The translations under genes were made by a program, and so were the position numbers. Below the pieces are notes generated by a model. It worked only from the letters and a program-made list of their open reading frames with translations. It was not told the DNA's origin and ran no database searches. DNA of 64,000 bases from Psammoneis japonica (Eukaryota): positions 124,001 to 188,000 of the forward strand of contig QPGO01000097.1 of the NCBI GenBank assembly GCA_008632985.1, written 5' to 3'. Shown here in pieces: positions 9,121 to 62,714 of the stretch. Within the stretch, counting starts at the first letter, position 1; each line of letters begins with the position of its first letter.

Positions 9121-10738
9121 TTGTGAACTTCGATAAGGAGTGTTAGATCAACAACAACTTTGATCTTGGCGGCAGTACCATAGCAGATAGCAGGTGCCAT
9201 TTAGTGAACCTTATGCTTATCAACTTTTTAGCAGGTGTTGGTTACTGATGGTTTCTGTACCTGGTTGCGGGTGCGATGAACACGCGCGAGGAGAGCACTC
9301 GCCCACCGCAGATCGGTGGGGGTGAGTCTTTATTATTTGGAGCGAAGGTAGCTGGCAGCGAGCTCTCGGCCTCGACGGGACATTGTTGTTGCAGCCTCTC
9401 CTTGTCGCAACGCCAATGGCTTGGCCAGAGCTGCAGTGTATGTGACTGTTTCAACCCCTGTTCGACCCCCCACCGTCGTCTGGAAAATGTGTTTGCTCTT
9501 GTTCAGAATTCATGCTCTCTTGTTCAGAATCATGAAGGGTGTCTGGCAATTGTTAGAACCTTCCAAGTGAGATTTAACAGTCAATGGAAATCAGTTGCAT
9601 CACACACACATTCTTGACAATTTCACACATCTGCTCATTTCAACATTGTTTTTGCATCCATCCACAACCAAGCTGACCTTCCAAACAGGAAATGACAGTC
9701 AAGGAAACTTGTCACTTGCTTCTGTCTCCATCTTGACAACCGCCATTGTTCATTTCTGACAACAATCATGTTCAATTGTCTTGTCAACCTGTTTGTGCAT
9801 TGGCTCCATGATGCTGTTCATTTTCTGCTGTTTGATTGTTCCATTTTGTTGTTTCCACACTGTGTGCCAAACAATGCCCCCTTTGTCCTGTTCTTGTTTT
9901 TCTCCTGCATTCCATCAGCTCCTGTTGTCCACCGCTGTCCCCACATGACGGGTGTGGTGTTTTGGTCCCCATGTCCTCCCCCTTGCAACCACTCTTGCTC
10001 TCTCCATTGTTGTCTGCACTGGGCAATGACGTCATCCTCCAATGATCAATCTTGCGTTTTCCTTCTGTTTGATTGGCCAAAGCATTGCCTGCAACTGGAG
10101 AAAACTTTGTGCCAATGATCATTTTTTGTGCATGTCTTGTGTTTCTTACAATCTTGTTTCATGCACTGCTTTTGCTCACCTTTGTGCCCTCTCTTGTTGC
10201 CCGTCTTCCTTTGTGTCTCAGGTCGCATGTCCATGTGTCTGTGTGAAGAAAAGATGTGTGTGCAAGTGTCAGTCGTTTGCATTGTGCACCCAATCTCCAT
10301 GCACTCACCACTTTTTTCCTCTTTCTCACCTTGTGTCCTGCATTTTGTTCCATCCCATTTGCAGTGCCACTGCCTGTTGCTGCAGCTCTCATTTTCATGT
10401 GTCACTTGCGACTTGAGTTTGCATTTTTTGTGTCTTGTGAGGGAGGGACAATTTGTGCTTTTGGCCAAACTGTGAGCCCCACCATCAGTTGATTTCTGCC
10501 AGCGTCGCTTTTTCAGCAACAATTTTGTTTTTAAATTCAATGTTTTTGTTGCAATGCAATGGTTTGAATGATTTGAAATGACCTCAATGAATCATTTGGC
10601 CATTGATGATGCCCCACACGCATGCAACAAGTTTGATTTTGTCACATGTTGAGATTGAAAATTTCACACTTCTGCCAGCACACCCCCATTTCCAGGACTT
10701 CAATCAGCCCCTTTTTTCATTTTGTGTTGTCATTGACC

Positions 10739-11900
10739 ATGCCACCCAAAAAAAGGAAGAAGCCGAGCCAACCAGTTGCTGACGACAACAATTCCAGCCA
10801 CATCAGTGGCACTGGCAGCCGTGGTGAGGGGAGCTGCTTGTGTTGCTTGAGCACCAGGCCAAGTTCCTCCTGCCAGGCAGCCCAGGTGAGACTCCAGGAC
10901 TGGCCCTTGGCAACATCAAGGCCCATCATCTGCAGCTGCTGCACCGTCTGATCACCCATCAGCTGCTGCTGCTGCTGCAGCCTCCATCAATGAAGAAGCC
11001 GACTCCTCTGACAATGTTTCTGAGAACTGTTCCCCTCTGATTTGGAAAAAAGACATTGAATTCCTCAAGCAGCACAACAAAGTCTCTTCCCACAACACTT
11101 CTGAGCTGCTTGGAGCCTCCAAGCATTGTGCCATTTACGGCATGAACCCAAACCAAATGTCTGGCAATGATTGCAGAATGTGGCTTTTGTTTTGCTGGAG
11201 GATGCACGGCCACACAAAAACCAAAATGAAAAGATGTGCAAGCAACTGCAGCAAAAGTGCAAAGCCCACAGTGCAAAAATTGCCGCTGCAAACAAGACCA
11301 TTGCCTCTCTCCAGAAAGCTCAGAAACAGGCCCTTCATGCCAGTGAAATGACAAATTTGGAGACCAACCTTGTGAAGAAAAGTGGGCAACTTGAAGGTGG
11401 GTCATGCTCTTCTGTTCTCTCTGGGTTCTCCATCCAAACAGGAGATTCGTGACACCATGAATTGCTGCTCACTCCTGGATGCTGGTGAGAAGTCTGAGTG
11501 CACCTTCACCTTGATGGTTTGGACCCAGTCTTCCCAAAAAACACAAAAAATGACAAGGACAGGTCTGACAATGAAGTCAACAAACCTGAAGTCAGTCAAA
11601 AAAGTTTCAGGAGAAGGTTGGCCCCTTGGCCCTCAACTTCATGAATCAAGAACAAAATGCCTTTGCATCCCACCTCAGAACACAAATCAATCACATTCTG
11701 GCTGCTGCCCAAGGCCAGCAGTGCCTTGTTTCCTGCTGTCTGGCAAAGCATCTTTGAGAAATGTTGTGGAGTCTGCAGCTCCAATCACCATGATGCAGGT
11801 GATGAAAATCCTTTTCCCCTCTTCATTGAATCTTCTCCATGTCACTCACAATGGCTTTGCGGTTCATTTGTCTTTTGCAGGTCAGCGCACTCCTGTTGAC
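10739..11900 (+). pseudogene. Degenerate ORF with N-terminal NLS-like motif and coiled-coil/acidic segments, probably TE-borne
   Basis: MPPKKRKKPSQP start; fragments such as MCKQLQQKCKAHSAKIAAANKTIASLQKAQKQ; broken by frameshifts and stops. Confidence 0.35.
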
Positions 11901-14200
11901 TTGCTTGCTTCCCCTCCCTCACCGGCATTGAATTGATGGTCGAGGAAAACAGTGCCATTGCATGTTGTTGCAATGCAGCCCATCTCTGCACCCCCTGCCA
12001 CTTTGGACAATTGGCCCCATCTCTGTGGGTGTATTTTTTGTTGCCTCTTGCTGTTGTTGTCCTCCTTTGTTGCACTTGAACACCAATGAAAGATTGCAAT
12101 CAGAGCCAACACAAAGTCACCAACTTTTGTGCCAAGAACAATGGGCCAACTGCAACCCACTGCATCAAGAGTGCCATTTGGGAGGCACTTGCCAGTTGAT
12201 CACTGCAAAGTTTCTCCTCACCAATGTGTTTTGGCATCATGAGGATGATCTGATTGACAGCCTGCACAACATGGATGATGCACCAGCCACACCCAAAAGC
12301 AGTGATCCAGCCACTGAGGATGTCACTCAAGAGTGTGCATGTTTGTGCAATCATTTCATTGCCAATGTCCCTTTGGCAAATTCCAAGCAGAAGTGCACTG
12401 CCCCGGACATTGCATGTTTCACAAAGCTGTGTGGCATTGTCACAACCTCTGACCGTGCATTGGATGGCACTCTCAATGGACCTGGGAACCTCAATTCAGG
12501 GTGCAGGCTTGGCTTTGTTTCCTCAAACAACAATTTGGAGGGGCAGAGGAACTGAACAAGCCAGCTGTCACTGCAAACACAGGTTCGGCTGCTTTTGCAA
12601 TGGACATCCCAGTTGGAACAACTCTTGATTTTCTGTCACACACCAAGGGAACAGGCCACAGCAACCTTGTTCCAGTGTGGAACAAGTTGTTTTCTCACCT
12701 TCCAAGCAGGATGATGAGGTGCAACCAAATGGAAAGGAGCCAGATGCAACCAAGAAGCTGGAGCATTCCATGGTGGACAACAACAACATGTTTGATGATG
12801 CTCATGGATCTGCCAGAGTTTGATGTGTCTCAGTCATGTCCTTTTTGGAATGTCCCAACTGCAGCAACCCCATCTGTCATCCCAAGAAGCAGTTCCTTGC
12901 ATGCATTGTCAATGCAGTTGTCACCTTTCTTAAAGTCACCAAATTTTGGATGCCTCACCACAGTCATGAGCTGGCTCCATTCTGTCTGGCTTTTCATGCA
13001 GACACATCCAATCCTCATTGGAGCTGACACTGCTCAGGTCATGGTGTTCATTCCTGTTCTTTCAAATTTGATTGGGTCTGTTCTTGCCAATCTTCATTGT
13101 GCATGAAGCAGACACCTGCAAAGACCCAAGACAAGGCATGCAACAGTTCCAAGGGGAGCATGCCAAAAATGCCGTGCTTTCCTCTGCCATGAGGGATGTC
13201 CCAAAACATGAGATGAGTCAAGAGCTGAGAAATGTCCTTGCACCATTTGCAAGAGGCAGCTGCCTTGCCATGATGATGCCTTTCCTCCATGGCCACCATG
13301 GCAGCCTCCACTGTCTCCTGGATGTTCTCTTGTTCCACCAAATTGCAAGCAAACAACGGATTGTCACCAAAACGCTGTGGCATGTCACAGCCCCTGTTCA
13401 TCTGGGAGATGTTGCTGGAATGGGAGTTGCAGTGACCTTTTGTGTTGCCAGTCATCATGCAAAGTCAAAAGTGGAGATGAACAAAGCCAAGAGATGGCAC
13501 CACAATTGGGAAACCAGTCTTTCACTTTGACAGTTTAAGCAACTCAGTGATGTCTCATGCAAAGTGCTGTGGCAGAACTTGATGCACGTCTCCTGTCCAA
13601 GCTTTGGCTGGAGGTTGGCGGTGGAATCATTGCTTGTCTTGGGGTGTGGCAACACCATTCCAAGTGTTGACCAAAGGGAGTGTGGCTGCAATGACACTCA
13701 TCATGATCAAAATTGCCCAATGCCACAAGAACGGGTTGTGCTTGCAAACAATCCATGTTGTCACAAGAAAAGGTGGAATCGCCAGACAGCACAACTGGGC
13801 AAACAAAGCATGACCTGGATGGGCAGCTGTTGCTGCTGAGTTGATCAAGGGAAGATTTGAGATCATGCTCCCGCTTGCTTCTGCCAGTCACCAGTGTCAA
13901 GAGAATGTGCTCATTTGTTTTGGGGCAGCACTTCTCATTGTGCATCCACTGACAAGACTGGACAACCTGGGGATCACAAAAGACCCTTCTCACACAATGG
14001 CTGCAGAAAGGAAAATTGGCACACATGCATTGGAGGGAAACTGGGACCCATGGGAGCAAAAATGGGCTCTGGGCCAACAAAGTCAAAATGCTTGGCTTTC
14101 ATGCATTGCAAGGTGGCAGAGTGGGAGAGAGACTCGTGCTCACAGTCACTCTCCTTGGCACATTTAGCCCAAGAAAGAAAAGCCTTGTGCAAACCATGGT
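11900..14200 (-). pseudogene. Degenerate Plavaka-like DNA transposase
   Basis: Minus-strand fragments DSTFSCDNMDCLQAQPVLVALGNF, WSTLGMVLPHP, GNTKGH...RGCD and GIFGMLPLELLHAL resemble the D..EP..TLG.F / W..LG / GD..G / G....P.E.LH motifs recalled for Plavaka transposases; no search run. Confidence 0.5.
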
Positions 14201-14249
14201 GGAGATGATGCTTCTTCATCATGACAGCCAGCTCTTCCTCCACTGGATG

Positions 14250-17200
14250 AGGCTTTTTGGTGGCATTGGTGTCACGAATGCAGGGAGGTTGCAACACCAA
14301 GCCTCTTTCATCTCCTCCAAATCAGTTGCCTCCATTCAGTGCAATCCTTCATCATCCTTGTCATTGTTGGGGAGGGAAGAGGATGACACAGAGCATTGTG
14401 CTGAGAGTGCATCGTCAAACTCCTCCTCAAGAAAAAGCATGTCATCACAGAAGATGCCATCATTGGGAAGGTCTGGGGCAAGCGGCATTGCTATCAGTGT
14501 TGAAGCCCCCAAAATGAAAAAGGAGAAGGATCTCAAGAAGAAGGCCACCAATGCTGTCATGTGGTGCTCCATCTCTTTCTGCCACAAGGTTGCTGGATCC
14601 AATGGCATCACTCCAGCAACTTTTGAGCCTGCATTTGTTGACATTCTTCAAGAATGCAGTGAGGCTGAGCACACTCATCTTTTTCAAGAACTCATTGCTC
14701 CTGCCATCAACAGCAAGAAGTCCACACACATCTCCAACCAAGTTGCACCACGTTTTGCTCAGGCTTGTGCCAACAAGGCATTTGCTGACAACATGCAAGG
14801 GTTCAAGTTTGCCAACCAGCCTCTGAACAACTCGACTGCTCTTTGTCTTGCATTTGTCAATGTCCTCAACTTTCTTTTTGTGGACCATCCCCACTGTGCT
14901 GCCGTCATGGAAGATGGGTGTGAGATCTCCAAGCACTCTGTCAACCCCAACTCTGGCAAGACAACAGCCAAATGCATCAAGAAATTGGATGTGCACGTCA
15001 GTGGCCAAGCTCATGACACCAACATCATGGAGTGTTGTCCAGTGTCACATGGTTGCTTTTGGCAAAAGCAGAAAGCAGTGGATCATGAGCAATGGCAACA
15101 CTCGTGAGATCACAACAAACATGCTCAAGACATTCAATCCATCATTTGCCCATTCATCCAGCATGGTGTGATGCCAGAGTGTTGCCCCCCAAGCTGTCCA
15201 TGATGCCCAGGACATCAGTGTCAGGGCTCTTGACATTGCTGCATGTTTCACAAATCTGACGATCCAAGATTTGGAAACAAATGTTGGTCGTGGCCCTGCC
15301 AGACCCTTTGGAAGCCAGTGTGTCTCACATCAGCTTGCCGAAAGAAAAGCCAACTTGAATGCTTCTTCAAACAAGCAATCTGCTTGTTTGCCATCAACAA
15401 CTGGAGCTGCTTCACCCAGTGAGAAATCCAAGTCATTGTTGTCTGCAGACAAGATTGAGCTCTGCAAGAAGATGGGCATGCTTGTCATCTCACATGACTC
15501 CCGTCAGCCTCCCAACATCCCGGTTGCGGCTAAGAAGAACTCTGACTCAACATCTGAACAGCACCTTTGCGCTCATTTTTTGACTTGTGGCTTTCTTGTA
15601 ACTGTCCCAGATGCAAGAAGCTGCGCATTGCCATCTTTGTGCTCTCCCTGAAGCAAAGTGTGCCAAGTTGGTCAACTTTGAGGAGAAGATGAAAAATCTT
15701 TCTTTTGCACCTGAGAAATGTCCTGTTGGTGCACTGGTTTTGTCTCAGATGAAACCAGCCCATTTGTTTTGTTTGAAAACATCCACTGACCACTCACCTT
15801 GATTTTTGTTTTTGTTCATGTTGCACCACCAGCTTGCATCAGCATTTTGTCCCAGGCTGCATTGGTGTCCCTGCAGATGAAGTTGTGCCCCCCTTGCCCT
15901 GGGGTGCAGAATCTTCCAAGTCTGCGTCACTTGGTTTGGTGCCGAAAATGTGCCTGATGTCCTGCCGGTTGCCTCTGAAGAGATTGAGGAGTTCTGTCCA
16001 GTCCTTTCCCCTGTGGTGACTGGAGGCTCTCCCTCTCAATGCATCCCAGCAATTGACAACTCATTCAAGAAAGCTGAGTGTGAAGAGTTCATCTGGACTC
16101 AGTTGCCACTTTGTGCCAGCCCCAATTGGACCAACCTTTTGACAAGGACAGTGTTTGTTAGAAATTTCATGTCTGAAGCTGTTTTTTTGCCATGTCTTGT
16201 TGCACCTTTGGAAGTTGGGTTTCCTGCACTCTGTTTCCCAAGAGATGCCATCCTTTGACTCTGGCAGTGTGGTCAACAATTGGGAGGATCCATGTTGTGT
16301 GACACCCAATGCTTTCCATTTGTGCACCCTTCTTTGTGAGCACAACAATGTTGACTTTAATTCTCTCTGAGGGCACCGTGCAGGATGGGAGCAAGAGTCA
16401 GACCTCAATGAGACACATGTGTTTGTCAGACCTTGGCAGGATTGCTCCATTTTGATGGAGACATGGCTTTGTTGGTGCAGCGGGTCAGTGGCATGCACGT
16501 TGGAGCACATCAGAATGTTGAGCGCATTGTGTTGCATCTTGATGGCAAAGTTGATCTCATTGCTGTCAAGATCACAGCTTGCATCTGCTGAGATGGTGTT
16601 CCAGCCTGTTGCAATGGGCACAACATGGAAGAAAATTTTCAAGACTGTTTTAATGGCAGGGACAAACTGTCCATTTGTGTCAATTCAGAGAAAACTCACA
16701 ATGCTCTTGTCAAGAACTCAAGCAGGGTTTTGATCTCATTTTTGACCAACAATTGAGACCATGTGTTTTGAATTGTCATCTGTCACCTCAGAGCTTGGTT
16801 GACAGTGACAAATTGTTCAAGCAGCCTTGGCCAGTTTTGGACAGCTCATTCCAACCCAAGCCTTTGTCCATGGCCTTGAATGATTTTTTTTCACTGGAAC
16901 ACAAGCTGGAGTGCTCCAAAGCTGTGGCAGAACATGATGTTGTGCATTGGATCTAGAATGCTTGGATTGCTTTTCCATCTCAAGAGATCCACCCAATTGA
17001 CGATGATGCTGCTGAAGCTCACCACACAATGAGGTGCAACCCAAACCTGGTTTGGATGCATGCATTGATCCAGCATGGCTGTGAAGTTGCTCAACAATTT
17101 GGTTGCAATTTTGGGGACCCCCTGACCCACACAATTGGGATGGTGGATGGTCACAATGCCATCAGCAGCTTGTGCAGCATGCATTTTGTGCCCCACATGT

Positions 17201-18775
17201 TGTCGAGATCATGCACCCATTCCTTCCAAGGATTGAGTTTCTATTGCAAATCACAACTGACTCCATTTGAGGTGGCAGCAGGCGGTTTCTCATGTGCTCC
17301 CAGATTCCTTGAACCCTGGAATTCTCCAGGATGGACTGTGGATTTTACCACTTCACAAGCACCACATGGATGACAACTTGCAAGCTGATGTTGCACAATT
17401 GTTGGAGCACACCATGTTCAATGTCTGTGAGTGCCTTTGCCATTCATGTGATGCAAGGCTTTCCACAGAAGGAAGTCCCAAATGCACTCAGCTTGAAAAA
17501 GCTCAACCTCATTCTGTCTTTCCTTTGCAAGCTTCTTGGGCACTCACACAACACCTGCACTTTGACTGTTGGGATTGTGCATCACAAGCTTGACAAGATC
17601 ATCTTTGTTCTTCCTGATTAAAAGTCCAAGATTGAGTGCCTCCTCTTGGAGGCAGCAACCTTGAATGGCATTTTGGAGCATCATGCTTGGCATGATCACA
17701 CACTTCGGTGTTGATTTTTTGTTTTCCAGAGTGTTCTTTGCTTGTCCATTTGCTGTCTTTTGGACTGTGCCAAGAGAGCACTCCACACCCTTCTGCAACA
17801 AAGATTGAGAACATTGCACCACGTGATCCGTGCTGCCAAGGAATTGGTGATGCAAGAAATTTTGGTGGTGGTGGTTGCTGCCGGGAATTTCAATTTTGGT
17901 TCTTTGTGCTGTGGAGCCCCATGGCAAGCTGAGGTTTGACCTTGTTCTTGTGGTCCTGAGGACAGGTTGCTGACAATGCTCTCAATTTTGTTGTTTCCCT
18001 CCTCCTGCTTGCTGGCATGGTCACTTTCATGAAATCTGTTGGCAAATCCATTGATCTGGAACTGGTTGCCTCCCTTTTTTCCCATGGCATCCTCAAAAAT
18101 TTGGTCCGCCTCAACCGGGTTGACAATGTGGTTAGCTCTGGTTGGCACAATCTGGGCACTGCCAAGAACTCTCTTCAAGGACAACAGCTTTTGTGTGTTT
18201 GGTCTGCACTTTGCATTTGTGGGGTGTTGGCATCAATTCCCAAGTGGCAATTTGGCTGGTGAAAAGAGCGGGCCAGCAGATGACATGTCTTGTCTAGTTG
18301 ATTGCAACCTGCCTCATTCTGTCCGTGTCTCTCAGCTGCTTCAGAAGCGTCCTTTTCTGACAAGAGCTGCCACATGGCTGGTGTGCTGTCAACTGTTTGC
18401 CGAGTCATCACCAGCCCCTGTGCATTTGTGGGGGTGTCGGCATCAACTCCTGAGAGGCAATTTGGCTGGTGAAAAGAGTGGGCCAGAGCAAATGACATGT
18501 TTGTCTGATCAATCCCAACCTGCCTCATTCTGTCTGTGTCTGATGGCTGCTTCAGAAGTGTCCTTTTTTGACAAGAGCTGCCACATGGCTGGTGTGCTGT
18601 CAACAGATCTCTGAGTTGTCACCGGTCCCTGCACAGACTCCACCTCACTTGGGACAGCTCGTGCATGGCAAATCCACAATTTCAGATTTGTCACGGACAT
18701 GATCTGGGATGTTGATGCTTGTGGAAGATCTTCCAGTTCTTTGGCATCAACTGCATCTGGCTGTGCATGCCCTGC
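14250..18775 (+). mobile_element. Degenerate retroelement (gag-like ORF, RT, RNase H), DIRS/Ngaro-like by inference; 3' part truncated at the satellite
   Basis: Gag-like fragments 14250-15700 with a Cys/His cluster; RT-like fragments LSPQSLVD, PVLDSSFQP, IHPIDDD, NPNLVWMHA, and HMDDNL at 17363 (YxDD equivalent); RNase H-like VDNVVS..W and LAGEKSGPADDMS. Confidence 0.6.
18212..18604. repeat. Imperfect tandem duplication, period 209 bp
   Basis: tgcatttgtgggg... at 18212 and 18421; both copies share ggcaatttggctggtgaaaagag and gacaagagctgccacatggctggtgtgctgtcaac. Confidence 0.9.
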
Positions 18776-19519
18776 TCAACTTGCCAAACTTGCAAAAGTC
18801 GCCAAAGTTGCCAAGCTCATCAAAGTCACCAAAGGTGCCAAAGTCACCAAAGCAGACAAACTCACCAAAGTTGACAAACTTGCCAAACTCACCAAAGTTG
18901 CCAAAGTTGACACACTCAACACAGTTGACAAAGTTGCCAAAGTTGACAAACTGGCCAAAGTTGCTAAAGTTGACAAACTCGCAAAACTCACCAAAGTCGC
19001 CAAAGTTGACACAAACTTGCCAAAGTCACCAAAGTTGACAAACTCACCAAACTCACCAAAGTTGACAAAGTCGCCAAAGTTGACAAAGTCACCAAAGTTG
19101 ACAAAGTCACCAAAGTCACCAAACTTGCCAAACTTGCCAAAGTTGCCAAACTCACCAAGCTCACCAAACTTGCCAAACTCACCAAACTTGCCACAGTTGA
19201 CTTGCCAAAGTTGCCAAACTTGCCAAAGTTGACAAACTCACCAAACTTGCAAAACTTGTCAAAGTTGACAAACTTGCCAAAGTCACCAAACCTGCCAAAG
19301 TTGACAAACTTGCCAAACTTTTCAAAGTCAACAAATTGACAAACTTGCCAAGTCAACAAACTCACCAAAGTTGACAAACTTGCCAAAGTCGCCAAAGTTG
19401 ACAAATTTGCCAAAGTTGACAAAGTTGGCAAACTTGCCAAAGTTGACAAAGTTGGCAAACTCACCAAAGTCACCAAAGTCACCAAAGTCACCTGAGTCAC
19501 CAAACTTGCCAAAGTTGAT
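18776..19519. repeat. 9-bp satellite (ccaaagttg / ccaaacttg / acaaactca variants), left block
   Basis: Directly visible 9-bp periodicity. Confidence 0.97.
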
Positions 19520-19764
19520 TGACAGGATTTGAACAAGATTTTAGTTTGTCACACACAATTGTGTGTGCTCTTCGTTCCGCGCGTGTCGCGCGATGTAGTT
19601 TGCTTTCGAGCCACTCGGCTCACAAGAACAACAACAGCAGTGCCGACATCATGACACCAGTCTTTCGGCTCCTGCAATGGTCTTTGCACGGAGATTCATC
19701 TGCCATTTAGACAGCAGCAAGGAGTCATTGTTTTCTTCCACCCAGTCATCTTCATTTTCTGTCA
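19520..19764 (+). repeat. 5' LTR
   Basis: tgacagga...ttctgtca; aligns without gaps to 26562-26806. Confidence 0.96.
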
Positions 19765-20579
19765 GATTGACAGTCTTGCTCTTTGTCATCCATTGAGCAT
19801 TCATCATCGGTCATCGAGAAATTTTTCAATGATGCGCACGGTTGGCGGTGGAAGTGCACATCTGCCTTCTTCACTGCTGCATGCTGGATTAAATCTACAT
19901 CTTTGGATTTACATCCAACACCTCCCATCGTTGGATGTGTTTGTTCAACGGATGTTTGTTTGACCAGGAATTCCCGAATTCTCAGACATCCAAGATTCCG
20001 GATTCCTCACAGAGGATCCCACCAAACCATCTGCTCGCGTCCATGTGCACACGATGTGAACCCTTGACTCTGGCCCTGCTCCATGCACGCCAAGTCTACT
20101 GCCTTGTATCTGCACCGGATTGCTGGTCTTCTACAGTCCTGCAAGGTCAACGAGGACAACTGTGAGAGGAAGCAGTTTGTGGTTGCAGCTGCATTGGGGC
20201 GAGGGTGCATTTCCCACGTTTGTTCATCCCTCCACAGTGCCAAATTTGGCCGGCCTGATCGGGTTGTCCAACCAACATAAAATGAGAACGGTTTGGAGGT
20301 CTTGTCCACCTCTGGTTGGCTTGTCAGCAGGGGTTTTTAACCCGTTGCTCCGCTCTCAGGCAACCCAAAGCGTCGCCAGCTGTGGGTTCGGACGTGCCGG
20401 CACAACTCTACGGACCAGATGGGAAGCTCAGCACTTAACTGCAAACAGGATGTCACAGCCTGGCGGCTTCTGACTCCCAAGATAGTTCCAGACATCAAGT
20501 CAAGATTCAAGTCAAGTTTCAAGTTGTTTCAAGCTCACCCTCCGAATCCAGCTGGTTCCGACATCCACCCAGTTGCAAC

Positions 20580-23500
20580 ATGGTTCTCACCAGGCAACAA
20601 CAAATTGATGGCCTCGAGCACATTCCAGGCACTGTTCTGAATCAAGCTGCAGACAGTCCGTTGCACTCCGCTCTCAACATTGATGGAACCAACTCGCATC
20701 AGGACCTTTTTCCTTTTACTCCGACACAACTGGATGCCCTTGTGTGCAACGATGGCACCAACCAGATGCCCTTGCCACGTGGTTGCAAAGCACACACAGC
20801 TGCGCTGATTAGCCTGCACACGGCAAAAGTGCGAGGCGGTGTGGATGTCAGCAACAACCCTCAATTGTTCACTCACGAGGAGTTCACTGACTGTCGTCTC
20901 AGTCCTGAGCATGTGGCATCCCTCTCCATGGGCACAGCGCCATCTGCTCCCACCCCTGGCTCTTTGCCACCCAAACCACGTGACCCTGTGCGTGAATTTA
21001 AACGAGGCATCAAACGTGACCCACTCACCTTCACGACTCTCAAGTCAGACAAACAGTGGCACACGTGGCACACCTCCATCATCGCACAGGCCCGCTCCCA
21101 GGACATTGAACTCATTCTTGATCCGAAGTGCAAGCCCTCTGCAGCTGAGGACAAGGCCCTGTTTGATGAACAACAGAAGTGCATGTTTGCCGCATTCGAA
21201 CAGATCTTGCAGAATGACAAAGGCAAGGTGCTTGTTCGTCAACATGTTGACTCCTCTGACACTAAAGCGGTGTGTTGCGACCTTTCCAAGTGCGCCCTCA
21301 CTTTTGCTTGTGCATCCCTGGAGTCCTCGACCCTTCTCACGTGCCTCACCACCGCTCGCCTCGGTGATGGCACCTGGAAGGGATCCACCCATGCATTCAC
21401 ACTTCACTGGCAGGACCAGCTTCACAAGCACGAAGCTCTTGTCCCGGGTGCAGACCATTTCTCTGCTGGCCAGAAATGTGTCATGCTTGAGAACACCGTT
21501 CATCCTGTCAAAGAACTCCATTCGGTGAAGAACCAAGCTGATCAGTTCCGCACGCAGAATGGAAAGGGTCTCTCTTGTGAAGAGCACTGTGGACTTCTGC
21601 TCTCTGCTGCAGCACAGTGCGACAGCACGTTCGCCCCCAAGACGGCTCCTTGCACTCCGCGCCGTGCCATCTACGAACATGACCCAGTCCCTGACGACCC
21701 TGATGATGATGCATTCTTCGACATCGACAGTGATGTTGACGTCATCCAAGCTTGTGCTGTGCAAACTCGCGGCAATTCCCTCACCAAGGAGCAATGGCGT
21801 CGCATCCCTCCAGACCATCAGTGCATTTGGGACACCTTGCCCCAGTCCACCAAGACCATCATTCTTGGCTCGTGCACCACCCACACCGGCAACTGCCATG
21901 ACTTGACAGCAGTCAACCTGCACGACCTTCGCATTGGCAGCAATGGCGATGTCAACTTGTCCGCCAACACTCATGATCTTGCGTCAGCCTTCGCACAATC
22001 CGACGCCACAGCCGATGCAGCCGATGCTGACCCCACTCTGGCTCATCTCACCAGGCGCAAGCCCCTGCCACCCGGCAACTTGCAACATCTCCTGGCACCT
22101 GAACGGCCTCCTTCCGCCCGTTCTGGCAAGAAACCGCCCGGATCTGCACCTTCCGTCCGCTCCAACACGAAGCCCAATGACACTGACATTGAGATCAACG
22201 GCCACAAATGCCGTCGCGTCAACAACCACAATGTCGTCCACTCTGCCTCGACCCACAAGTCAACTCGCAAAGGTGCTCTCGTGGATCGTGGTGCAAACGG
22301 TGGCATCACCGGTGATGATGTTTGTGTCATTGCCCACGCTGGTCGCCAGGTTGACGTCCAAGGTGTCGATGATCATCAACTGGTCGACATCCCCATTGTT
22401 GCTGCTGGTGGTGTCATCCACATGCAACGCGGCCCTGCCATTGCCATCCTTCACCAGTGCGCCTGCGCTGGAAAGGGGAAGACGATGCACTCTTGCGGCC
22501 AGCTCGAGTGGTGCAAACACGATGTCAACAATCGGTCCATCAAGGTTCCCAATGGTCTGCAGTGTGTCACCACTGTTGATGGATGCATCATTCCCATCGA
22601 CATTAAAGCCGGCCTCCCGTGCATCGCCATGCGCCCGTGCACTGACGCCGAATGGGACACTCTGCTGCATGTCATTCTCACTGGTGATGACACATGGGAT
22701 CCATCTGTCCTTGACCACCAGTTCACGGATGATGAGACGTGGCATGATGCCGTGTCTGACCTCCAAGACGACCCGACTGCCAACCTCTTTGATGAGTTTG
22801 GCAACTGTCGTCACCGCCATGTTGTCAACAATGCCATGCTTGCAGACTCCGTCCTTGATGATCACCTGCTCCCGACATCTCATTTCTTCTACGAATGCCA
22901 TGAGCGCAAACTCAATCCCAAGGATCCCGACTTTGAGTCCCTCCACCCCCACTTTGGCTTTCTCCTGAAGGACACTGTCCACCACACTTTTGATTGCACA
23001 ACGCAGTGTGCCCGCATGCCAGCCAGCACGCACCTGAAAAAGGCACACAAATCGCCCAACCCGGCTCTCAATGTCCACTGACGTGATGAACCCGTTGCCA
23101 CTGACATGGTCCACTCTGACACCCCTGCTGTTGACTCTGGTTGCACCAGCGCCCAGCTCTTTGTCGGCATGGAATCTCTCGTCACTGACGTGTGTGGCAC
23201 CAAAACTGACAAAGAATTTGTCAACACCCTCGGAGACAACATTTGCAATCGCGGTGCCCCGTCCAAGCTCATCAGCGACCGTGCTCAGGTTGAGATCAGC
23301 AACAAGGTTCTTGGCATCCTTCATGCCCTCTTCATCTCCAGTTGGCAAAGCGAGCCTCACCACCAGCATCAGAATTTTGCTGAACACCGCTGCCAAACTG
23401 TGAAGACCATGGCTGACACCATCATGGATCGCTTCAGGTCCCTGGCTTGCACCTGGCTGCTCGCCCTGATGTGCGTGTGTTTTGTGCTCAACCACACAGT

Positions 23501-26445
23501 GTCCGCCAAGCGACGCATTCCAGCTCTGGGTGGGACCTTGCACTGCTGCACTGTGACATCAACAGTTTTTTGGATCGCGTCGCATGTCGCGCACGTGCAT
23601 TTCTACGTGTTACATTCTACAAAATTGTTTCATGCTCCCTGTTTTGCAAAGCCAAAGAGGCTTTCTATTTTCAACATTTGTGAGAACAAAAATGCGCTGG
23701 GCATGTTCTGCAATGTCTGAAGAACACACCTGGGCAAACTGTCAATGATGTGCTCCAAGTGTGAAGGAGGAGACACGTTCGTAAAATTGCCTCTTTTTCT
23801 GTTGGTGATCATTTGCACTTTCATTGCAGTGTGAATTTGCTGCGGAGCTTGCACACAGAATTCCACGGGCCCAATGTCGCACGGAGTCCCACCTGGGACT
23901 GGAACCCGTCAAGCTCCACTGGCGCACCCCCACCGAGGTGCCATCCAGATCTGCTCCCAACATCAGCCCACTGGTGGGAACCAGGGCACTGCCACCTGGA
24001 TGATTCCGACTGGCCGTCCGAATCCCATGAATTACGTGGTCGCTTCGTTGGCATCGCCGAACATGTTGGTCACCAAATGACATTCAAGATTCTTTCCGAC
24101 GACACTCAGAAGATTCTCTGCTGTTCCAACGTGCGCTCCGCCCATGATCCATCTGCTCCAAACCTGCGTCTTGATCCTCTTGATGAGAGATCTGCTGACC
24201 CTGTCATTAAATCCTGCCATGACTCCAAGGATTTGCCAGATTCACCAGATGGGGAGATGATCAGGATGCCCAAAATGCCGGTCTTTGACCCCGAGGACAT
24301 CATCGGACACACCTTCCTCATGAAGCCACAAGAGGATGGTCAACGCCACAGAGCCTGCATCGTCAAAGCCATTGAGGACCACAACTGGGAAATTGGAGGC
24401 AATCCTGAACTGGTCAAGTTCATTTGCTCCATCAACAATGACAAATGCGAGGAAGTCCTGGCCCACAACGACATCATGCACCACATTGAGCAAGAAGACG
24501 AGGACACCACTCTCTGGAAGTTCCGATGCATCGCATCGCACGAAGGACCATTGCGACCCCATGATCCCCATTGGAAAGGCTCAAGCTGCAACGTCATGCT
24601 TGAATGGGAGAATGGGGAGATCACATCCGAACCCCTTGCCATCATTGCCAAGGACAACCCCATCACCTGTGCCATCTGCGCGCGTGAGCACAGCCTTCTA
24701 GAAACCGAAGGATGGAGATGTTTTTGCAAGACAGCACTTTGTCAGAAGAGGCCATTCCGCATGGCCAACCAAGCCAAGTTGCGCTCCTTTTGCACTGCAC
24801 CACAACACAAGTGCGGGCATGAAGTGCCACGGGACTGCAAGCATGCCATGGCCCTTGATGAGCGCAACGGCAACCGCAAGTGGGGAGACGCAACGGACCT
24901 CGAGATGACTCAGCTTGATGAGTGCGAGGTCTTCCATGACTGCAGACACCACAAGGATTCCAGTGCTCCATCAGGACACAAGAAGATCCGGGCACATCTC
25001 ATCCACAACGTCAAACATGACGGACGGCACAAAGCAAGGCTTGTTGCCAATGGACACCTCACAGACGTGCCCATCAACAGTGTCTGTTCTGGAGTGGTGT
25101 CTCTCTGTGGCCTGCGAATGATGATCTTCCTGGCCGAACTCAACAAACTAGAGACCTGGGCCACTGACATTGGGAATGCCTGCCTTGAAGCTGCAACCAA
25201 GTAGAAACTGCACATTGCAGCAGGCCCCAAGTTTGGCGACCTGGAAGGACACATCCCTGTCATCCACAAGGCCTTGCACGAACTCTGCAGCTCTGGCCTC
25301 AGATGGCATGAACGCTTTGCTGATTGCTTGCGGTGCCAAAGGCTTCTTTCCATGCAAAGCCGAACCCGACATCTGGCTGCACAGGAATGGTGACCACTGC
25401 GAATGCGTGGCAGTGCATGTGGATGACCTGGCCTTCACCATGAAGGACCCCCAGGCTTTTGCAGACACCCTCATGGAGAAGCACAAGTTCAAGCTCAAGG
25501 GCACTGGACCATTGGAGTTCCATCTTGGCTGCAACTTCACCCGTGACCCAGACAGTGCCCTGTGCCTTGCTCCCCGCAAGTGCATTGAGTGCATGGTTGA
25601 CAACCACGTGCGCCTCTTTGGGGAGAAGCCCCGCACTGATGTGCTTTCACCCCTTGACAAGGGTGACCACCCTGAGCTCGACACCTCCAAATTGCTCAAA
25701 CCCGATGGCATGCACCAACTCCAATCCTTGATTGGATCCCTGCAATGGGCAGCATCTCCAGGTTGCATTGACATTGCTGCGGCTGTCATGTCCCTGTCTG
25801 GCTTCCGTGCAGCGCCCCGTCAAGGCCACCTAGACCGTGCCAAATGCATCTGCGGATTCCTCTCCAAGATGCGTCATGGCACCCTCCGAGTGCGCACCGA
25901 GGAGCCCGACCATTCGGACCTCCCTGAGCCCATGTGTGACTGGGCTCAATCTGTGTGTGGGGAGGCAGAAGAGCTGCTCCCGCAAGATGCACCCAAGCCG
26001 CTTGGCAAGTTCGTCACCACCACACACTGCGTTGATGTGAACTTGTTCCATTGCATGCTCACTGGATGCTCTGTCACCGGCATCCTCCATTTCCTCAACA
26101 AGTTTCTGGCTGATTGGTTCTCTAAGAAACAAGCAACAGTTGAGACCACCATGCATGGATCCAAGTTTGTTGCCGCAAGGATGTGTGCGTTGAGCAGATC
26201 ATTGATCTGCGCATCACTTTGCGTCACCTTGGCGTTCCCATTCGTGAAACATGTTGCATGTTTGGGGACAACAAGTCAGGTGTGGACAGTGCCACCATCC
26301 CGCACTCCAAGTTGCACAAGCGACACACTGCCCTCTCATTCCATTGAGTGCGTGAGGCGATTGCCTCCGGTTTCCTTGAGTTTCATTTTGTCGAAGGCTC
26401 CTGCAACCCGGCTGACATCCTCAGCAAGCATTGGGGTCACTCCTA
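20580..26445 (+). pseudogene. Copia gag-pol polyprotein, disrupted
   Basis: Stops at 23079-81 and 25202-04, frameshifts, MITE insertion in integrase, and near-total Tyr loss (2 Tyr in the 833-aa ORF; none seen in the 463- and 441-aa ORFs). Confidence 0.92.
23512..23910. mobile_element. 399-bp non-autonomous TIR element (MITE-like) inserted in the Copia integrase
   Basis: Flanked by an aagc duplication (23508-11, 23911-14); imperfect ~25-bp TIRs gacgcattccagctctgggtgggac versus reverse complement gacgggttccagtcccaggtgggac; removal restores NHTVSAK-LHWRTP. Confidence 0.8.
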
Positions 26446-26561
26446 AATCTGCCAATCTGGAACCTCCTTTGTCCTCCAATGTTTTGGAACTTTGATCCCG
26501 AGGCTTTCAACCAATCCGACTTCGAATCTGTCGCTGTTGGCCCCTCAAGCAAACTGGGGAG

Positions 26562-26806
26562 TGACAGGATTTGAACAAGATTTCAGCTCATCACACACAA
26601 TTATGTGTGCTCTTGGCTCTGCACGCGTCGCGCGATGCAGTTTGCTTTCGAGCCACTCGGCTCACAAGAATGACAACAGCAGTGCCGACATCACGACACC
26701 AGTCTTTCGGCTCCTGTGATGGTCTCTGCATGGAGACTCATCTGCCATTTAGACAGCAGTGAGGAGCCATTGTCATCTTCCACCCAGTCATCTTCATTTT
26801 CTGTCA
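26562..26806 (+). repeat. 3' LTR
   Basis: Copy of 19520-19764, preceded by a polypurine tract. Confidence 0.96.
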
Positions 26807-28350
26807 TTGACAAACTCGTCAAAGTCACCAAACTCACCAAAGTTGACAAACTCGCCAAACTCGCCAAAGTCAACAAAGTTGACAAAGTGATGAACTCACC
26901 AAAGTTGCCAAACTTGCCAAACTTGCCAAAGTTGACAAACTCACCAAACTCACCAAAGTTGACAAACTCAGCAAAGTCGCCAAACTTGCCAAACTCGCCA
27001 AAGTTGGCAAACTCGCCAAAGTTGCCAAAGTTGCCAAAGTCACCAAACTTGCCAAAGTTGACAAACTTGCCAAAGTTGCCAAAGTTGGCAATCTTGCCAA
27101 AGTTGTCAAACTCGCCAAAGTTGCCAAAGTTGCCAAACTCGCCAAAGTCACCAAACTCACCAAACTTGCCAAAGTTGCCAAACTCGCCAAACTTGCCAAA
27201 GTTGCCAAAGTCACCAATTTTGCCAAAGTGGCCAAAGTTGCCAAACTTGCCAAACTCGCCAAAGTTGCCAAACTTGCCAAACTCGCCAAACTTGCCAAAG
27301 TTGCCAAAGCTGCCAAACTTGCCAAAGTTGCCAAAGTCACCAAACTTGCCAAAGTTGCCAAAGTTGTCAAACTCGCCAAAGTTGCCAAACTCGCCAAAGT
27401 TGCCAAAGTTGCCAAACTCACCAAACTTGCCAAAGTTGCCAAACTCGCCAAACTTGCCAAAGTTGCCAAAGTTGACAAACTCACCAAACTCACCAAAGTT
27501 GACAAACTTGCCAAAGTCACCAAACTTGCCAAAGTTGCCAAAGTTGGCAAACTCGCCAAAGTTAGTTGCCAAAGTCACCAAAGTTGACAAACTTGCCAAA
27601 GTTGCCAAAGTTGCCAAACTCGCCAAACTTGCCAAACTTGCCAAACTCGCCAAAGTTGCCAAAGTTGCCAAACTCGCCAAACTTGCCAAACTTGCCAAAC
27701 TCGCCAAACTTGCCAAAGTCACCAAAGTTGCCAAAGTTGCCAAAGTTGCCAAACTCGCCAAACTTGCCAAACTTGCCAAAGTCACCAAAGTCACCAAAGT
27801 TGACAAACTTGCCAAAGTTGCCAAACTCACCAAACTTGCCAAAGTCGCCAAACTTGCCAAAGTTGCCAAAGTTGTCAAACTCACCAAAGTTGCCAAACTC
27901 GCCAAAGTTGCCAAAGTCACCAAAGTTGCCAAACTTGCCAAACTTGCCAAAGTTGCCAAAGTTGACAAAGTTGACAAACTCGCCAAACTCACCAAAGTTG
28001 ACAAACTTGCCAAAGTTGCCAAAGTTGACAAACTTGCCAATGTCGCCAAAGTTGCCAAAGTTGGCAAACTCACCAAACATGCCAAAGTTGACCAACTTGC
28101 CAAAGTTGCCAAAGTTGGCAATCTCACCAAAGTCATCAAACTCGCCAAAGTTGCCAAAGTTGCCAATCTCGCCAAACTTGCCAAAGTTGCCAAACTTGCA
28201 AACTTGCCAAAGTTGGCAAACTCGCCAAAGTCACCAAACTTGCCAAACTTGCCAAAGTTGGCAAACTCGCCAAAGTTTTGTCAAACTTGCCAAAGTTGCC
28301 AAAGTCATCAAACTCGCCAAAGTTGCCAAAGTTGACGAACTCTTGCCAAA
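26807..28350. repeat. 9-bp satellite, right block
   Basis: Same unit family as 18776-19519; continuous with it once the Copia is removed. Confidence 0.97.
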
Positions 28351-29590
28351 CTGGCCAAAGCGTCTGCAGGAAATTGCCATTTTCACCATCTGCATCTCAA
28401 AGTTGATTTGAGTGGTGCCTGCAAGCACAAAATCTGCTGGACAAGACAAATTTGTTGCCAACACCACCTTGCAGAAAAGACATTCTTAGACACAACTTTT
28501 GACACAAAAAACTGTGAGACAAAAAAATGGGCTGTGCAAAGACCCGGATGTGTGCAATTGAAAATGTCCCAACTTTTGTGTTGTGCAGGAATGCACCAGG
28601 CTTCTGCATGCAAAAGAACCCGTGTGCGCATTTTTCAAAATGTGTGACATGGCAAGGCATGCTTTGAAAAATGTTTGCAGTCAAAACAAAAGACAAAAAA
28701 AATGTTTTTGCACGACACACCATTCCTTGTTTGTTGTTGAGAAATCGTCGTTGGTGTCACCATGGTGCAATGGCTGCGATTGTGTTGTTTGTCTCCAGCG
28801 GCTGCAAGCTCCTCATTTCCGTTGATTTTATTTTGTGCTGATGACACCTGCGTGCACAGCAAGCACTGTGCAGCAGGCTGGTGCTGCGCAGCGGTTTTGC
28901 ACAGACAGCATGCACGTTTGAGCAATTCCTCAAACATTGAGCCCTGTTTGCTCAAACATGACATGTTTGAGCAAAAGGCGGTGTTTCGACAAAACGTCAT
29001 TCAAATCGCACACTGCAGTGCCCACAATGTCAACACATGTTTGTTCGAAATGTTGTCATGTGAAACTTGTGTGTTTTGAGCAAAATGCAAGCACGGCGCA
29101 ACAGCAGCAGGCATCATGAGTGCGCAGTGGATGGACAGATGACGGATGATGATGAGAGGCCGCCCCACCCCCCTCATTGTTCTCAGATGACTGGGGTGAT
29201 GATGGGGTCAGTTGCGTCGACCCGTTTGGGTCAACAATGCTGAAAATTCCCTCCCGACCGAACCCTTTGTTCACTCATGTGTTGGCATGTGCTGCACACC
29301 ATCAGATGCATGCGTGTGTGGTTGTTGCTCCCATTCGGTGGCGTCACTGTGTCATGTCATCGAGGTGTGCGGTGGTCTACTCTCTACTCTCTACAGCAGC
29401 TGCTAGAGTAGAGAGTGCCGGTAGAGTCCAGCTGAGGCGGTGGCAGTGGCAGGCGAATGCCGAGCGCGAGATCCTCGCCACGTCACCCGCAGCACACGCC
29501 CTCCAGCAACTGTAAATGAAAAGTGCGCGCGAGCGCGCAGAGCACATTCACCGTGCGAGAAATTTGGAATGCCACAAAATGCGAACGACA

Positions 29591-58981: not shown

Positions 58982-59014
58982 TTTTGAGAAACAGCCACCA
59001 CAAGATCAGAAACA

Positions 59015-60166
59015 ATGGCAATGAAGCCGGTCCGTTTGTTCGCGTTTTTCATCACATTGCTCTCTCTAGTAGGGCTTGCTTTTGGAAAGGCATCCCGAAC
59101 GACTCAAAGAGATGCTATTGCATACATTGTTGATCAGGTCCAACTGATGGCAGGCACGGCAAGCCTCGCCGCCGTGCTGAGGCAGGGCGCAAGGATGTTT
59201 CGCACTAGTGAACGTCAACTCCGGCGTTGGTACAAGCACTATCTCTTTTATGGAGAACTACCATTCGACACGTCACGAGAGTGGAAAAGACTTTTGAGAC
59301 GGTCCACTGGGGCTTGGCAAGGAGGACGGCACTTTCGTCCAAGGCACGTCGAAGCCCTTCGAAAGATTCTTGAGCGCAATCCTGAGCATTATCTTGATGA
59401 GTTTGTCCACGATCTGTGCATTGAAACTGGAACTCTGTTTCATCCGTCCACTGTCTGGAGAGCCCTTCATGACAAATTGGGATGCTCTCTAAAGACACAC
59501 GCTGCCGTTGCAAGGGAGAGAAACGAGCGACTCCGACATGAGTGCAAGGTGGCTTTGGCACTTTTTGTTTTCGACCCATGTCAAGTGATCTTTTGCGACA
59601 AGACACACAAAGACAAGAATGCTGCCAGACGCCGTCGGGCTTGGGGGGTGCGCAACGAAGACCTTGTTTTGAAGAAATGGTTCCAGGATGCAGTGCGCTG
59701 CACATGCCTTGCAGCTTGCAACATTAATGGGTTTGTTGTTGAAGCTTGTGACACCGTCAGGAGAGACAATGTCAGTGATGAGGGAGCAGCAGGAACTGTG
59801 GACTCAGACCGATTTTATGAATGGGTAGAAACACATTTGGCACCACAGCTGGGTGACTGTGAAAAAGGAGAGAAAAATTCGGTGGCAGTGATGGATAACG
59901 CATCGACGCACTTTGACCGTCGCATCAAACGATTGATAGAGAAAAAGAAGAACGCGAGGTTGCTGTACACTGCACCCTGCTGTCCCGACCTCAATCCAAT
60001 TGAAAAAATGTTTTCAGTGTACAAAGCATGCCTCCGTCGCCATGGACAACTTGAGGGTCATCAGGCGGATTGGCAAGACTTGCACTATGGGGCGTTGCTT
60101 TCAGTAACTCCCGACATAGCAGCGAAGCACTTTCGAAAATGCGGGGTGCCGGGGATGGAGAATTAG
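59015..60166 (+). CDS. IS630-like DD35E transposase (ORF open but carries substitutions at conserved sites)
   Basis: HTH region (YLDEF...STVWRALH), IFCD, VMDNASTH, APCCPDLNPIE; 35 residues between the second D and E. Confidence 0.92.
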   Translation: MAMKPVRLFAFFITLLSLVGLAFGKASRTTQRDAIAYIVDQVQLMAGTASLAAVLRQGARMFRTSERQLRRWYKHYLFYGELPFDTSREWKRLLRRSTGAWQGGRHFRPRHVEALRKILERNPEHYLDEFVHDLCIETGTLFHPSTVWRALHDKLGCSLKTHAAVARERNERLRHECKVALALFVFDPCQVIFCDKTHKDKNAARRRRAWGVRNEDLVLKKWFQDAVRCTCLAACNINGFVVEACDTVRRDNVSDEGAAGTVDSDRFYEWVETHLAPQLGDCEKGEKNSVAVMDNASTHFDRRIKRLIEKKKNARLLYTAPCCPDLNPIEKMFSVYKACLRRHGQLEGHQADWQDLHYGALLSVTPDIAAKHFRKCGVPGMEN

Positions 60167-62692: not shown

Positions 62693-62714
62693 GTTTTGAT
62701 CCTCGATTGTAAAT

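Follow-up and report, generated by a model that had tools for sequence, protein, structure and literature searches.

What removes a single dinucleotide from 20 kb of chromosomal DNA and spares the genes on either side? The question is raised by a stretch of 64,000 nucleotides from Psammoneis japonica (contig QPGO01000097.1, positions 124,001 to 188,000), the whole of which was analysed and is referred to as the window. In it, a contiguous island around a dead Ty1/Copia-type retrotransposon with long terminal repeats (LTRs) has lost nearly all of its TAs. The island is composed of a left block (block A), a tandem array of 9-bp units with the Copia element inserted in it, and a right block (block B) (Table 1). 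Without the array, the island contains 57 TAs, compared with 697 expected at flank density (17,515 bases, 9576-29377; Poisson P ~1e-217). The flank expectation is the TA density outside the island, and the observed/expected (o/e) values were calculated with an expectation from base composition. In the flanks, the TA o/e is 0.56 (1-9575) and 0.60 (29378-59000), and the CG o/e is 0.97 and 1.00. These counts confirm the TA depletion of the 20-kb island and the normal state of the neighbouring genes, both of which the original prediction had read from the letters.

The depletion ends abruptly on both sides of the island. In 1-kb bins, the TA o/e is 0.01-0.09 from ~10 to 29 kb, except for 0.21 at 20001-21000, and 0.45-0.87 in the remaining window, barring a second low zone at ~59-62 kb. 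TA makes up a fraction of only 0.002-0.005 of the island dinucleotides. The switch in TA lies at ~9576 and ~29377 in 100-bp bins, and the edges are sharp to ~100 bp. The left edge is ~430 bp from a prenyltransferase open reading frame (ORF), and the right edge is ~140 bp from the next ORF. The Copia element (19517-26812) has 36 TAs against 394 expected (o/e 0.091). TG and CA are raised in all segments of the island (o/e 1.56-1.97), with 1.82 and 1.81 in block A and 1.97 and 1.84 in block B, and they reach 1.4-2.5 in the 1-kb bins, in which CG is lowered. The shortage of CG had gone unmentioned in the original prediction. It is strongest in block A (77 observed, 519 expected, o/e 0.148), and weaker in Copia (318 against 514, o/e 0.62) and block B (o/e 0.59). 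The summed fraction of pyrimidine-purine dinucleotides (YpR) is nonetheless alike inside and outside, 0.236-0.274 in the island versus 0.237-0.241 in the flanks; hence, TA and CG were converted into TG and CA. Specifically, the loss of TA and CG in block A amounts to ~0.085 of the dinucleotides and matches the gain of TG and CA (0.078-0.086, by subtraction); transitions within the YpR class would yield this equality. The G+C content is 0.476-0.535 in the island and 0.478-0.480 in the flanks.

The direction of change can be read from the Copia element, as it has many relatives. By its homologies, the segment 19517-26812 is a Ty1/Copia LTR retrotransposon with LTRs of 254-256 bp. A phmmer search with the ORF at 23765-25204 gave 5558 matches at E<=0.001, and E values reach 1e-129 for polyproteins of 1171-1913 aa. 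A near-length search listed 659 matches at E<=1e-20. Identity is 60% for the best of them, and one bears the name of the diatom Fistulifera solaris. PF07727 is present in most of the near relatives. The reverse transcriptase (RT) family RVT_2 is recognized in the element itself with an E value of 6e-6 and 26.4 bits, which is under the Pfam cut-off of 31.6. To polarize the changes, 133 homologs with at least 2.5% Tyr (from the first 150, with 17 dropped) were aligned to the element by tblastn. Conserved columns were defined as codon columns with at least 8 aligned homologs and at least 70% agreement, and there are 470 of them. None of the 19 conserved Tyr columns retains Tyr. Nine now read His, eight Cys, one Leu, and one Phe, as expected if both strands had been hit, which the original prediction also held. 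By comparison, the conserved residues other than Tyr are retained at 397 of 451 columns (Fisher P 5e-17). Arg is the second affected residue, retained at 21 of 33 columns and otherwise changed to His (5), Cys (5), or stop (2). The other residue types are retained at 77-100%, leaving out Met (1/2) and Cys (1/1). The codon at 25416, CAT, is occupied by Tyr in 24 of the 28 aligned homologs, and the YVDD motif of the RT has become HVDD. This motif and the others quoted earlier, IGNACLEA, HCVD, MHGSKF, and KCGH..RDC, are present in the translations.

Classification of the 73 changed conserved columns, with ambiguous ancestral codons labelled by the TA or CG reading first, gave two major classes. 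Twenty-one fit TA>TG/CA (TA>TG 11, TA>CA 10), and 28 fit CG>TG/CA (CG>TG 13, CG>CA 15). The remainder comprises 3 other transitions, 13 transversions, and 8 multi-step changes. A>G or T>C changes away from TpA are found in 2 columns, against the 21 at TpA, so that these changes are concentrated at TpA. Both strands are affected. The His and Cys outcomes are interspersed along the element in the order HHHCHCCCHCCHCH..CHH, and the LTRs contain CA/TG doublets. No one-strand runs of His or Cys outcomes, which would be a sign of processive editing, were found in Copia or in two further homologs described below (P0239 and P0191).

The LTR pair provides the timing. Two LTRs of one insertion are identical when they are made by reverse transcription. 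In the present pair, the YpR columns are CA/CA (27), TG/TG (15), CG/CG (8), CA/TG doublets (4), CG/TG (4), CA/TA (2), TA/TG (1), CA/CG (1), and TA/TA (1). With ~12 ancestral TA sites that mutate independently at p ~0.8, the expected numbers of doublets, half-mutated sites, and intact sites are 3.7, 4, and 0.5, compared with 4, 3, and 1 observed. CpG decay at p ~0.19 per LTR would give ~0.25 discordant doublets. Since the LTRs were identical at insertion and are now discordant at TA-derived sites, the element arrived with an ordinary TA content and was then mutated in place as DNA.

The surviving TAs reveal a preference beyond the dinucleotide. Those in the context YTAR (Y, pyrimidine; R, purine) account for 29 of 57 in the island versus 293 of 1555 in the flanks (odds ratio 4.5, P 1e-7), and those in RTAY for 2 of 57 versus 454 of 1555 (odds ratio 0.09, P 2e-6). 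As RTAY is nearly all gone and YTAR is the longest-lived, the motif is 5'-TAY, or RTA on the opposite strand. A second test of TAY, in which YTGY plus RCAR was divided by RTGR plus YCAY, gave a ratio of 1.28 in the island versus 1.17 in the flanks and was not significant (P 0.11).

Table 1. Coordinates of the island, its components, and the second TA-poor zone in the window.
Feature	Position	Strand	Description
Block A	9576..18777	.	9.2 kb, low-copy repeated, stripped of TA and CG; TA 19 observed / 628 expected, o/e 0.030
Left part of 9-bp tandem array	18778..19516	.	unit TTGCCAAAG; Tandem Repeats Finder period 9, 82 copies
5' LTR of Copia	19517..19772	+	89.5-90.2% identity to 26559-26812
Copia internal region (dead Ty1/Copia-type)	19773..26558	+	protease/integrase, RT, RNase H over two frames
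3' LTR of Copia	26559..26812	+	pair of 19517..19772
Right part of 9-bp tandem array	26813..28360	.	period 9, 167 copies
Block B	28361..29377	.	1 kb up to the right edge; TA 2 observed / 70 expected, o/e 0.029
Tc1-like DDE transposase ORF	58988..60166	+	Pfam DDE_3, E 2e-15
759-aa ORF	60443..62722	-	no Pfam family; TA-depleted, CG nearly normal

The same signature is found in other public sequences. Five of the 269 retrieved Copia homologs (P0032, P0191, P0224, P0239, and P0266) are poor in Tyr (0-1.3%) and rich in Cys (3.4-4.8%). Four others (P0155, P0161, P0202, and P0249) have normal Tyr, only 1.6-2.6% Arg, and raised Cys and His, a composition that reads as CpG decay without TpA loss. These Arg-poor, Tyr-normal homologs indicate that CpG decay and TpA loss occur separately in different genomes. 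A scan of metagenomes with P0239 as the query recovered 8 loci, all of them unmutated relatives at 76-82% identity with a TA o/e of 0.47-0.70; the mutated contig encoding P0239 was not among these 8. The relatives of these families thus have normal Tyr and TA, and a family that had always been free of both, one of the ways in which the original prediction could have failed, was not encountered. Relative to the 8 loci, 7 conserved Tyr out of 34 survive in P0239, the others being His (14), Cys (11), or Phe (2); in P0191, 7 out of 32 survive, with Cys (15), His (9), and Phe (1) in place of the rest. Additional changes (Ile>Val, Thr>Ala, Ile>Thr, Met>Val, and Leu>Pro/Ser) are those expected when TpA is mutated at other codon positions.

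We subjected P0239 and P0191 to a stricter test, using only non-silent changes and only codons with an identical 5-base context in two unmutated comparators, L001 and L002 (TA o/e 0.57 and 0.70). A>G is found at 17 of 42 adenines that follow a T but at 6 of 353 other adenines (P 6e-14). Among thymines, T>C is found at 12 of 39 that precede an A, versus 5 of 205 of the remainder (P 2e-7). Adenines with a 5' A show no A>G change (0/48 and 0/46), and changes at CpG are rare (C>T 1/23, G>A 1/49). Tyr codons preceded by a purine have become His (19) or Cys (11) with 2 retained, and those preceded by a pyrimidine have become His (5) or Cys (15) with 12 retained (P 6e-4 for His, 0.005 for retention). 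The TAY rule recurs in these proteins.

A second TA-poor zone is located outside the island and contains the last two ORFs of Table 1. The middle of the Tc1-like ORF (59260-59965) has a TA o/e of 0.16 and a CG o/e of 0.84, and its hypermutation seems partial or patchy. Around the DDE_3 match the ORF reads ...APCCPDLNPIE.... The 759-aa ORF found no homolog among 7822 candidates. The segment 60550-62595 has 13 TAs against 132 expected (o/e 0.10) and a CG o/e of 0.82. As TA is poor there and CG near normal, TA loss is separable from CpG decay.

A mechanism for the island must account for the observed signature, its polarity, its di- and trinucleotide context, its timing after integration, and its confinement. 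We propose TpA to TpG/CpA editing, directed by chromatin or by foreignness of the DNA, acting after integration, and probably performed by a DNA-acting adenine deaminase; the probability that we assign to this reading as a whole is roughly 0.6. The process turns TpA into TpG or CpA in chromosomal DNA once the element is integrated. Either strand of the palindromic TpA step is hit about equally, most efficiently where the edited A precedes a pyrimidine (5'-TAY). The simplest chemistry for the enzyme would be deamination of adenine to inosine, which would be read as G at the next replication. The process has approached saturation over one contiguous 20-kb island and halts within ~100 bp of the flanking genes. 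Decay of methylated CpG in the same island is a separate and slower process. The outcome is permanent inactivation of the elements, with loss of all conserved Tyr including that of the RT motif YVDD, and we infer a function in genome defence.

The same signature would also arise from thymine chemistry. In this alternative, an oxygenase of the TET/JBP type makes 5-hydroxymethyl- or 5-formyl-uracil in RTA, and mispairing of the modified base leads to T>C. 5-Formyluracil mispairs with G, and hydroxymethyluracil of dinoflagellates favours TpA. All results on polarity and context fit T>C with a preference for a 5' purine equally well. As a mutator of this type aimed at transposable elements (TEs), it has no precedent that we could find in the literature, and the sole paper found on the signature prefers adenine deamination, as far as its main text goes (bioRxiv 10.64898/2026.01.13.699255). 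We regard thymine chemistry as unlikely, though it is the strongest of the alternatives.

Error-prone repair could in principle couple the two kinds of loss. Deamination of 5-methylcytosine (5mC) would produce T:G mismatches, and patch repair by a polymerase-eta-like enzyme would put G opposite T at WA (W, A or T). A preference for WA is characteristic of polymerase eta, and the A:T phase of somatic hypermutation is an example of such errors. CpG decay does occur in the same island (CG o/e 0.15-0.62; 28 of the 73 changed columns). A polymerase that mutates WA should deplete ApA too, yet ApA is undepleted in the island (AA o/e 0.9-1.74 per kb), and A>G with a 5' A is 0/94 in the P0239/P0191 comparison. 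TA was lost even where CpG decay is slight, as at 60550-62595 and in P0239/P0191 (C>T at 1/23 CpG). In addition, the 97% conversion of one dinucleotide far exceeds the error spectrum of a polymerase. Polymerase-eta errors were rejected on these grounds as improbable.

An artefact of sequencing or assembly, in which modified bases in repeats are miscalled as TG or CA, is a still poorer candidate. No DNA is more heavily modified than TE islands, and modified bases are prone to miscalling by long-read basecallers. The bases were compared with a public run, X1, whose contigs were obtained from exact 31-letter words with a k-mer depth of ~61 on the unique left-hand gene; the comparison stopped short of block B. 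X1 belongs to the one public study in which the stretch was found, and no RNA data set containing it is listed. An 18.7-kb contig of depth 61 spans 8000-10102, the left edge included, and shows 0 differences over these 2.1 kb. Three pieces of unique-like depth (12235-13053, 13493-13863, and 16426-16803) agree with the assembly in every letter and without gaps, and a fourth (15635-16030) has 0 other letters and 1 gap. The comparison recorded 309 differences from the assembly in all; of the 40 listed, 3 replace a residual TA by CA or TG. These residual TAs, at 12032, 14493, and 17620, read CA or TG in the sole covering X1 contig, which is of unique-like depth. These three differences delete residual TAs and do not restore them, and they may represent a haplotype difference or ongoing mutation. 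Assembly or polishing error is thereby excluded: the deep contigs carry the assembled bases, and a conflict with the reads, which could have overturned the original prediction, did not appear. Moreover, the Tyr>His/Cys signature occurs in proteins of other public data sets, and the preprint case discussed below comes from Illumina mutation-accumulation data. The artefact was rejected and is given very little credence, a further point in its favour being that X1, the sole run, is possibly from the assembly's own sample.

Two further alternatives are hardly credible. The island could be a fossil of RNA editing, with A-to-I changes made by an ADAR-like enzyme on retrotransposon RNA and reverse-transcribed into DNA, and ADARs are described as having a 5' U preference (bioRxiv 10.64898/2026.01.13.699255, main text). 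Such editing is at odds with LTRs that diverged at TA sites after insertion, with equally affected strands (9 His, 8 Cys), with the involvement of non-retroelement DNA (the Tc1-like transposase and blocks A and B), with saturation in one contiguous sharp-edged block, and with the sparing of ApA, and it was rejected. Native composition or selection, that is, elements always devoid of TA or TA selected against, can appeal to the usual mild TA shortage of the window genes (o/e 0.56-0.60), and it was likewise rejected since 133 of the first 150 homologs have at least 2.5% Tyr, HVDD in place of the catalytic YVDD and 0/19 conserved Tyr are incompatible with a working element, the unmutated relatives of the second family have a TA o/e of 0.47-0.70, and the LTR doublets show change in place.

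Post-integration TpA editing by a DNA-acting adenine deaminase is therefore the reading that we prefer, and the X1 depth bears on its targeting. The summed contig depth over block A is 98-824 versus 61 in unique DNA; it is 98-107 over 16.0-17.9 kb and up to 55,000 over Copia, with copies less than 90% alike uncounted. As part of block A stands at ~1.6 times the unique depth, what guides the process is probably the chromatin state or foreign nature of the DNA and not its copy number. The original prediction had proposed an A:T to G:C mutator that acts on DNA at TpA and is aimed at repeats or heterochromatin-like DNA. The mutator held in every polarized test run, and its TpA signature stands; a dependence on repetition is unsupported, as parts of block A are near single copy at 90% likeness or more. 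The prediction had also counted four unrelated TE types, of which only Copia proved identifiable.

Several points weigh against the proposed mechanism. Adenine and thymine chemistry are indistinguishable here, because TpA is palindromic and RTA equals TAY. The near-single-copy state of parts of block A, taken at ~1.6 times unique depth and at least 90% likeness, leaves repeat dependence unsupported. Blocks A and B are without an assigned identity, so that 'transposon-derived' is demonstrated for Copia only. The timing argument from the LTRs is based on 254 aligned bases. Five LTR differences lie outside TpA and CpG, and all have T in the 5' LTR versus C in the 3' LTR (GTT/GCT twice, TTT/TCT, ATT/ACT, and GTC/GCC); no explanation was found for this one-directional set. 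Among the surviving TAs, YTAY (20) outnumbers its reverse complement RTAR (6), compared with 421 versus 387 in the flanks (P 0.015). This asymmetry has the same direction in block A and Copia and is not predicted by a simple strand-symmetric model; the editor may be biased with respect to replication or transcription. Finally, with X1 possibly from the assembly's own sample, library effects are less excluded than assembly or polishing error.

The remaining components of the island contribute less to the argument. The left array part matches 26807-28360 at 76-84%, and the array is interrupted by the Copia insertion at 19517-26812. The consensus of its unit is without TA, for which reason the array is uninformative for TA loss and does not lend the support that had been drawn from it as a satellite. 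The unit variants are CTCGCC, CTTGCC, and CTCACC. Variation among the units is mainly at one ancestral CpG per unit, which is now CG, TG, or CA, and by their letters these variants are products of CpG decay. On the minus strand, an ORF at 26691-28280 runs across the right part of the array and encodes 529 aa of (Gly-x-Phe)n, where x is Asn, Lys, Glu, or Asp; its only Pfam match is a low-complexity match to Collagen. The apparent 9-bp satellite may be a disrupted repeat-protein gene with Copia inserted in it. Block A has no Pfam match in six frames at E<=1, and its longest ORF (384 aa, 13953-15107) belongs to no Pfam family; none of 1900 candidates proved homologous to it. A 211-bp tandem duplicate in it (18209-18631) shows 4 CA/TG doublets, which are not assignable to TA because CG is strongly decayed there. 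The 5' LTR and leader of Copia are richer in TA than the remainder of the element, with 14 TAs at 19542-20483 and many CGs kept; this stretch (19500-20500) is possibly less silenced.

The flanks contain genes in the form of long, intron-poor ORFs, which encode a ketoacyl synthase, an enoyl-ACP reductase, an HSF-type factor, ABC transporters, a WD40 protein, and a sigma-70 factor. These genes are consistent with a photosynthetic eukaryote whose gene structure is diatom-like. A scan of 19 flank ORFs revealed no deaminase domain. An ORF of 1458 aa without Pfam family (40557-44930, plus strand) has internal direct repeats of ~234 bp with 78-83% identity (42065-43260), and the TA content of this repeat-containing host gene is normal.

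The loss of TA also affects how such DNA is annotated. Throughout 9000-30000, TAA and TAG are erased and TGA is left as the sole stop codon. The two strands of this segment contain 36 stop-to-stop ORFs of at least 150 aa, many of them overlapping. What remains are long spurious ORFs, which gene callers will take for proteins, and the 800-aa Tyr-poor entries P0191 and P0239 suggest that such dead DNA has been annotated in this way. Dating of TEs by LTR divergence and their detection by profile models would be distorted as well, the RT of the present element lying under the Pfam cut-off.

Several consequences follow from a saturated footprint on an LTR retrotransposon in a diatom-like genome, taken together with the same context rule in unrelated public sequences. 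Ecologically dominant marine algae would commonly have the process, and TEs, not viruses alone, would be its targets. The enzyme would represent a naturally occurring editor of adenine in DNA, and the TAY motif could guide the search for it. A bolder extension, to which we give somewhat less than even odds, is that the editor with the TAY motif is a conserved defence of the SAR supergroup (stramenopiles, alveolates, and Rhizaria), shared by diatoms and chlorarachniophytes, guided by chromatin or foreignness and not by repetition, and acting in place on integrated retrotransposons, DNA transposons, and viruses until no TpA is left. That it is widespread in marine protists is suggested by the Tyr-poor Copia proteins, which come from several public data sets. 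Such an editor would be the A:T-directed counterpart of the fungal repeat-induced point mutation (RIP) and a natural adenine base editor working in a double-strand context. To our knowledge, RIP was long the sole known system that deliberately mutates chromosomal repeats, and it was confined to fungi.

How does the island compare with known systems? The footprints of APOBEC and ADAR in animals are alike in being deaminase-type hypermutation that inactivates retroelements. They differ in that those enzymes act on cDNA or RNA in the replication cycle and on one strand, whereas the change in the island is post-integration, on both strands, and strictly at TpA, and extends over adjoining non-retroelement DNA. 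The 5mC-type decay of CpG shares the island (CG o/e 0.15-0.62), with Arg changed to His, Cys, or stop at 12 of 33 conserved Arg columns, but it cannot remove TA and accounts for the CG loss only. Diatoms are reported to methylate TEs (PMC9998398). RIP resembles the island in its dense transitions at one dinucleotide, on both strands, in TE or repeat DNA, after integration, and with destruction of coding capacity. It differs in direction. RIP is described as changing C:G to T:A and creating TpA (PMC2621366, PMC7882544), whereas TpA is destroyed here and A+T is not raised (G+C 0.476-0.535). Duplication dependence is a property of RIP, and none has been demonstrated for the island. The original prediction had argued that neither RIP nor 5mC decay can explain the TA loss, and it was borne out: the direction is opposite, and CpG decay is separable. 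RID-related DNMT4 genes are reported from many diatoms with function unknown (PMC9998398). DNMT4 could bear at most on the CpG part of the decay, and it is no explanation for the TA loss because a cytosine enzyme cannot give A:T to G:C. The island process is the mirror image of RIP, not RIP.

The closest relative is found in the chlorarachniophyte Bigelowiella natans (Mettrop et al., bioRxiv 10.64898/2026.01.13.699255). For mutation-accumulation lines of this alga, the preprint reports 302 new mutations in the nuclear genome, of which 231 lay within two integrated viral regions; 230 of the 231 were A>G or T>C, and the GC-biased ones were all on TpA. The rate was ~1000 times background and was seen in only some lines. 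Reverse transcriptase and DDE endonuclease domains were over-represented in coding sequences low in TpA, and an ADAT2-like deaminase was proposed as the editor. The terms 'diatom', 'context', and 'trinucleotide' are absent from the main text of the preprint by term search. Every feature of the B. natans signature that sequence can test is found in the window, namely TpA transitions, both strands, confinement, and loss of TpA with gain of CpA and TpG. Going by the preprint's account, the two cases are alike in A>G and T>C at TpA, which give TpG or CpA by strand; in the restriction to particular non-host regions with the remaining genome normal; in the long-term depletion of TpA with enrichment of CpA and TpG; and in copy number, as the hypermutable region of a nucleocytoplasmic large DNA virus (NCLDV) in B. 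natans is single copy and parts of block A are seemingly so too. They differ in the host, a chlorarachniophyte there and a diatom-like photosynthetic eukaryote here, and in the targets, which are viral there and an LTR retrotransposon with LTR-based post-integration evidence here. The NCLDV region has 3.3% TpA left, whereas the island is saturated at 0.002-0.005. CpG decay co-occurs and a TAY preference is seen here. In B. natans, mutations were seen in real time and a candidate enzyme is at hand, whereas the present process is known from its footprint in sequence alone. We found no report of the TpA-hypermutation signature in diatoms in the literature, and a term search of Maumus 2009 (PMC2806351) returned nothing relevant. 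This agrees with the original prediction, which knew of no description in diatoms, but the signature is no longer undescribed overall. TpA hypermutation has already been described, once, in 2026 for B. natans; hence, the process in the island is not categorically new, though it is far from ordinary. To that description the island adds a second and distant lineage, an end state at saturation, proof from the LTRs that the process acts after integration, a TAY preference, and the co-occurrence of CpG decay.

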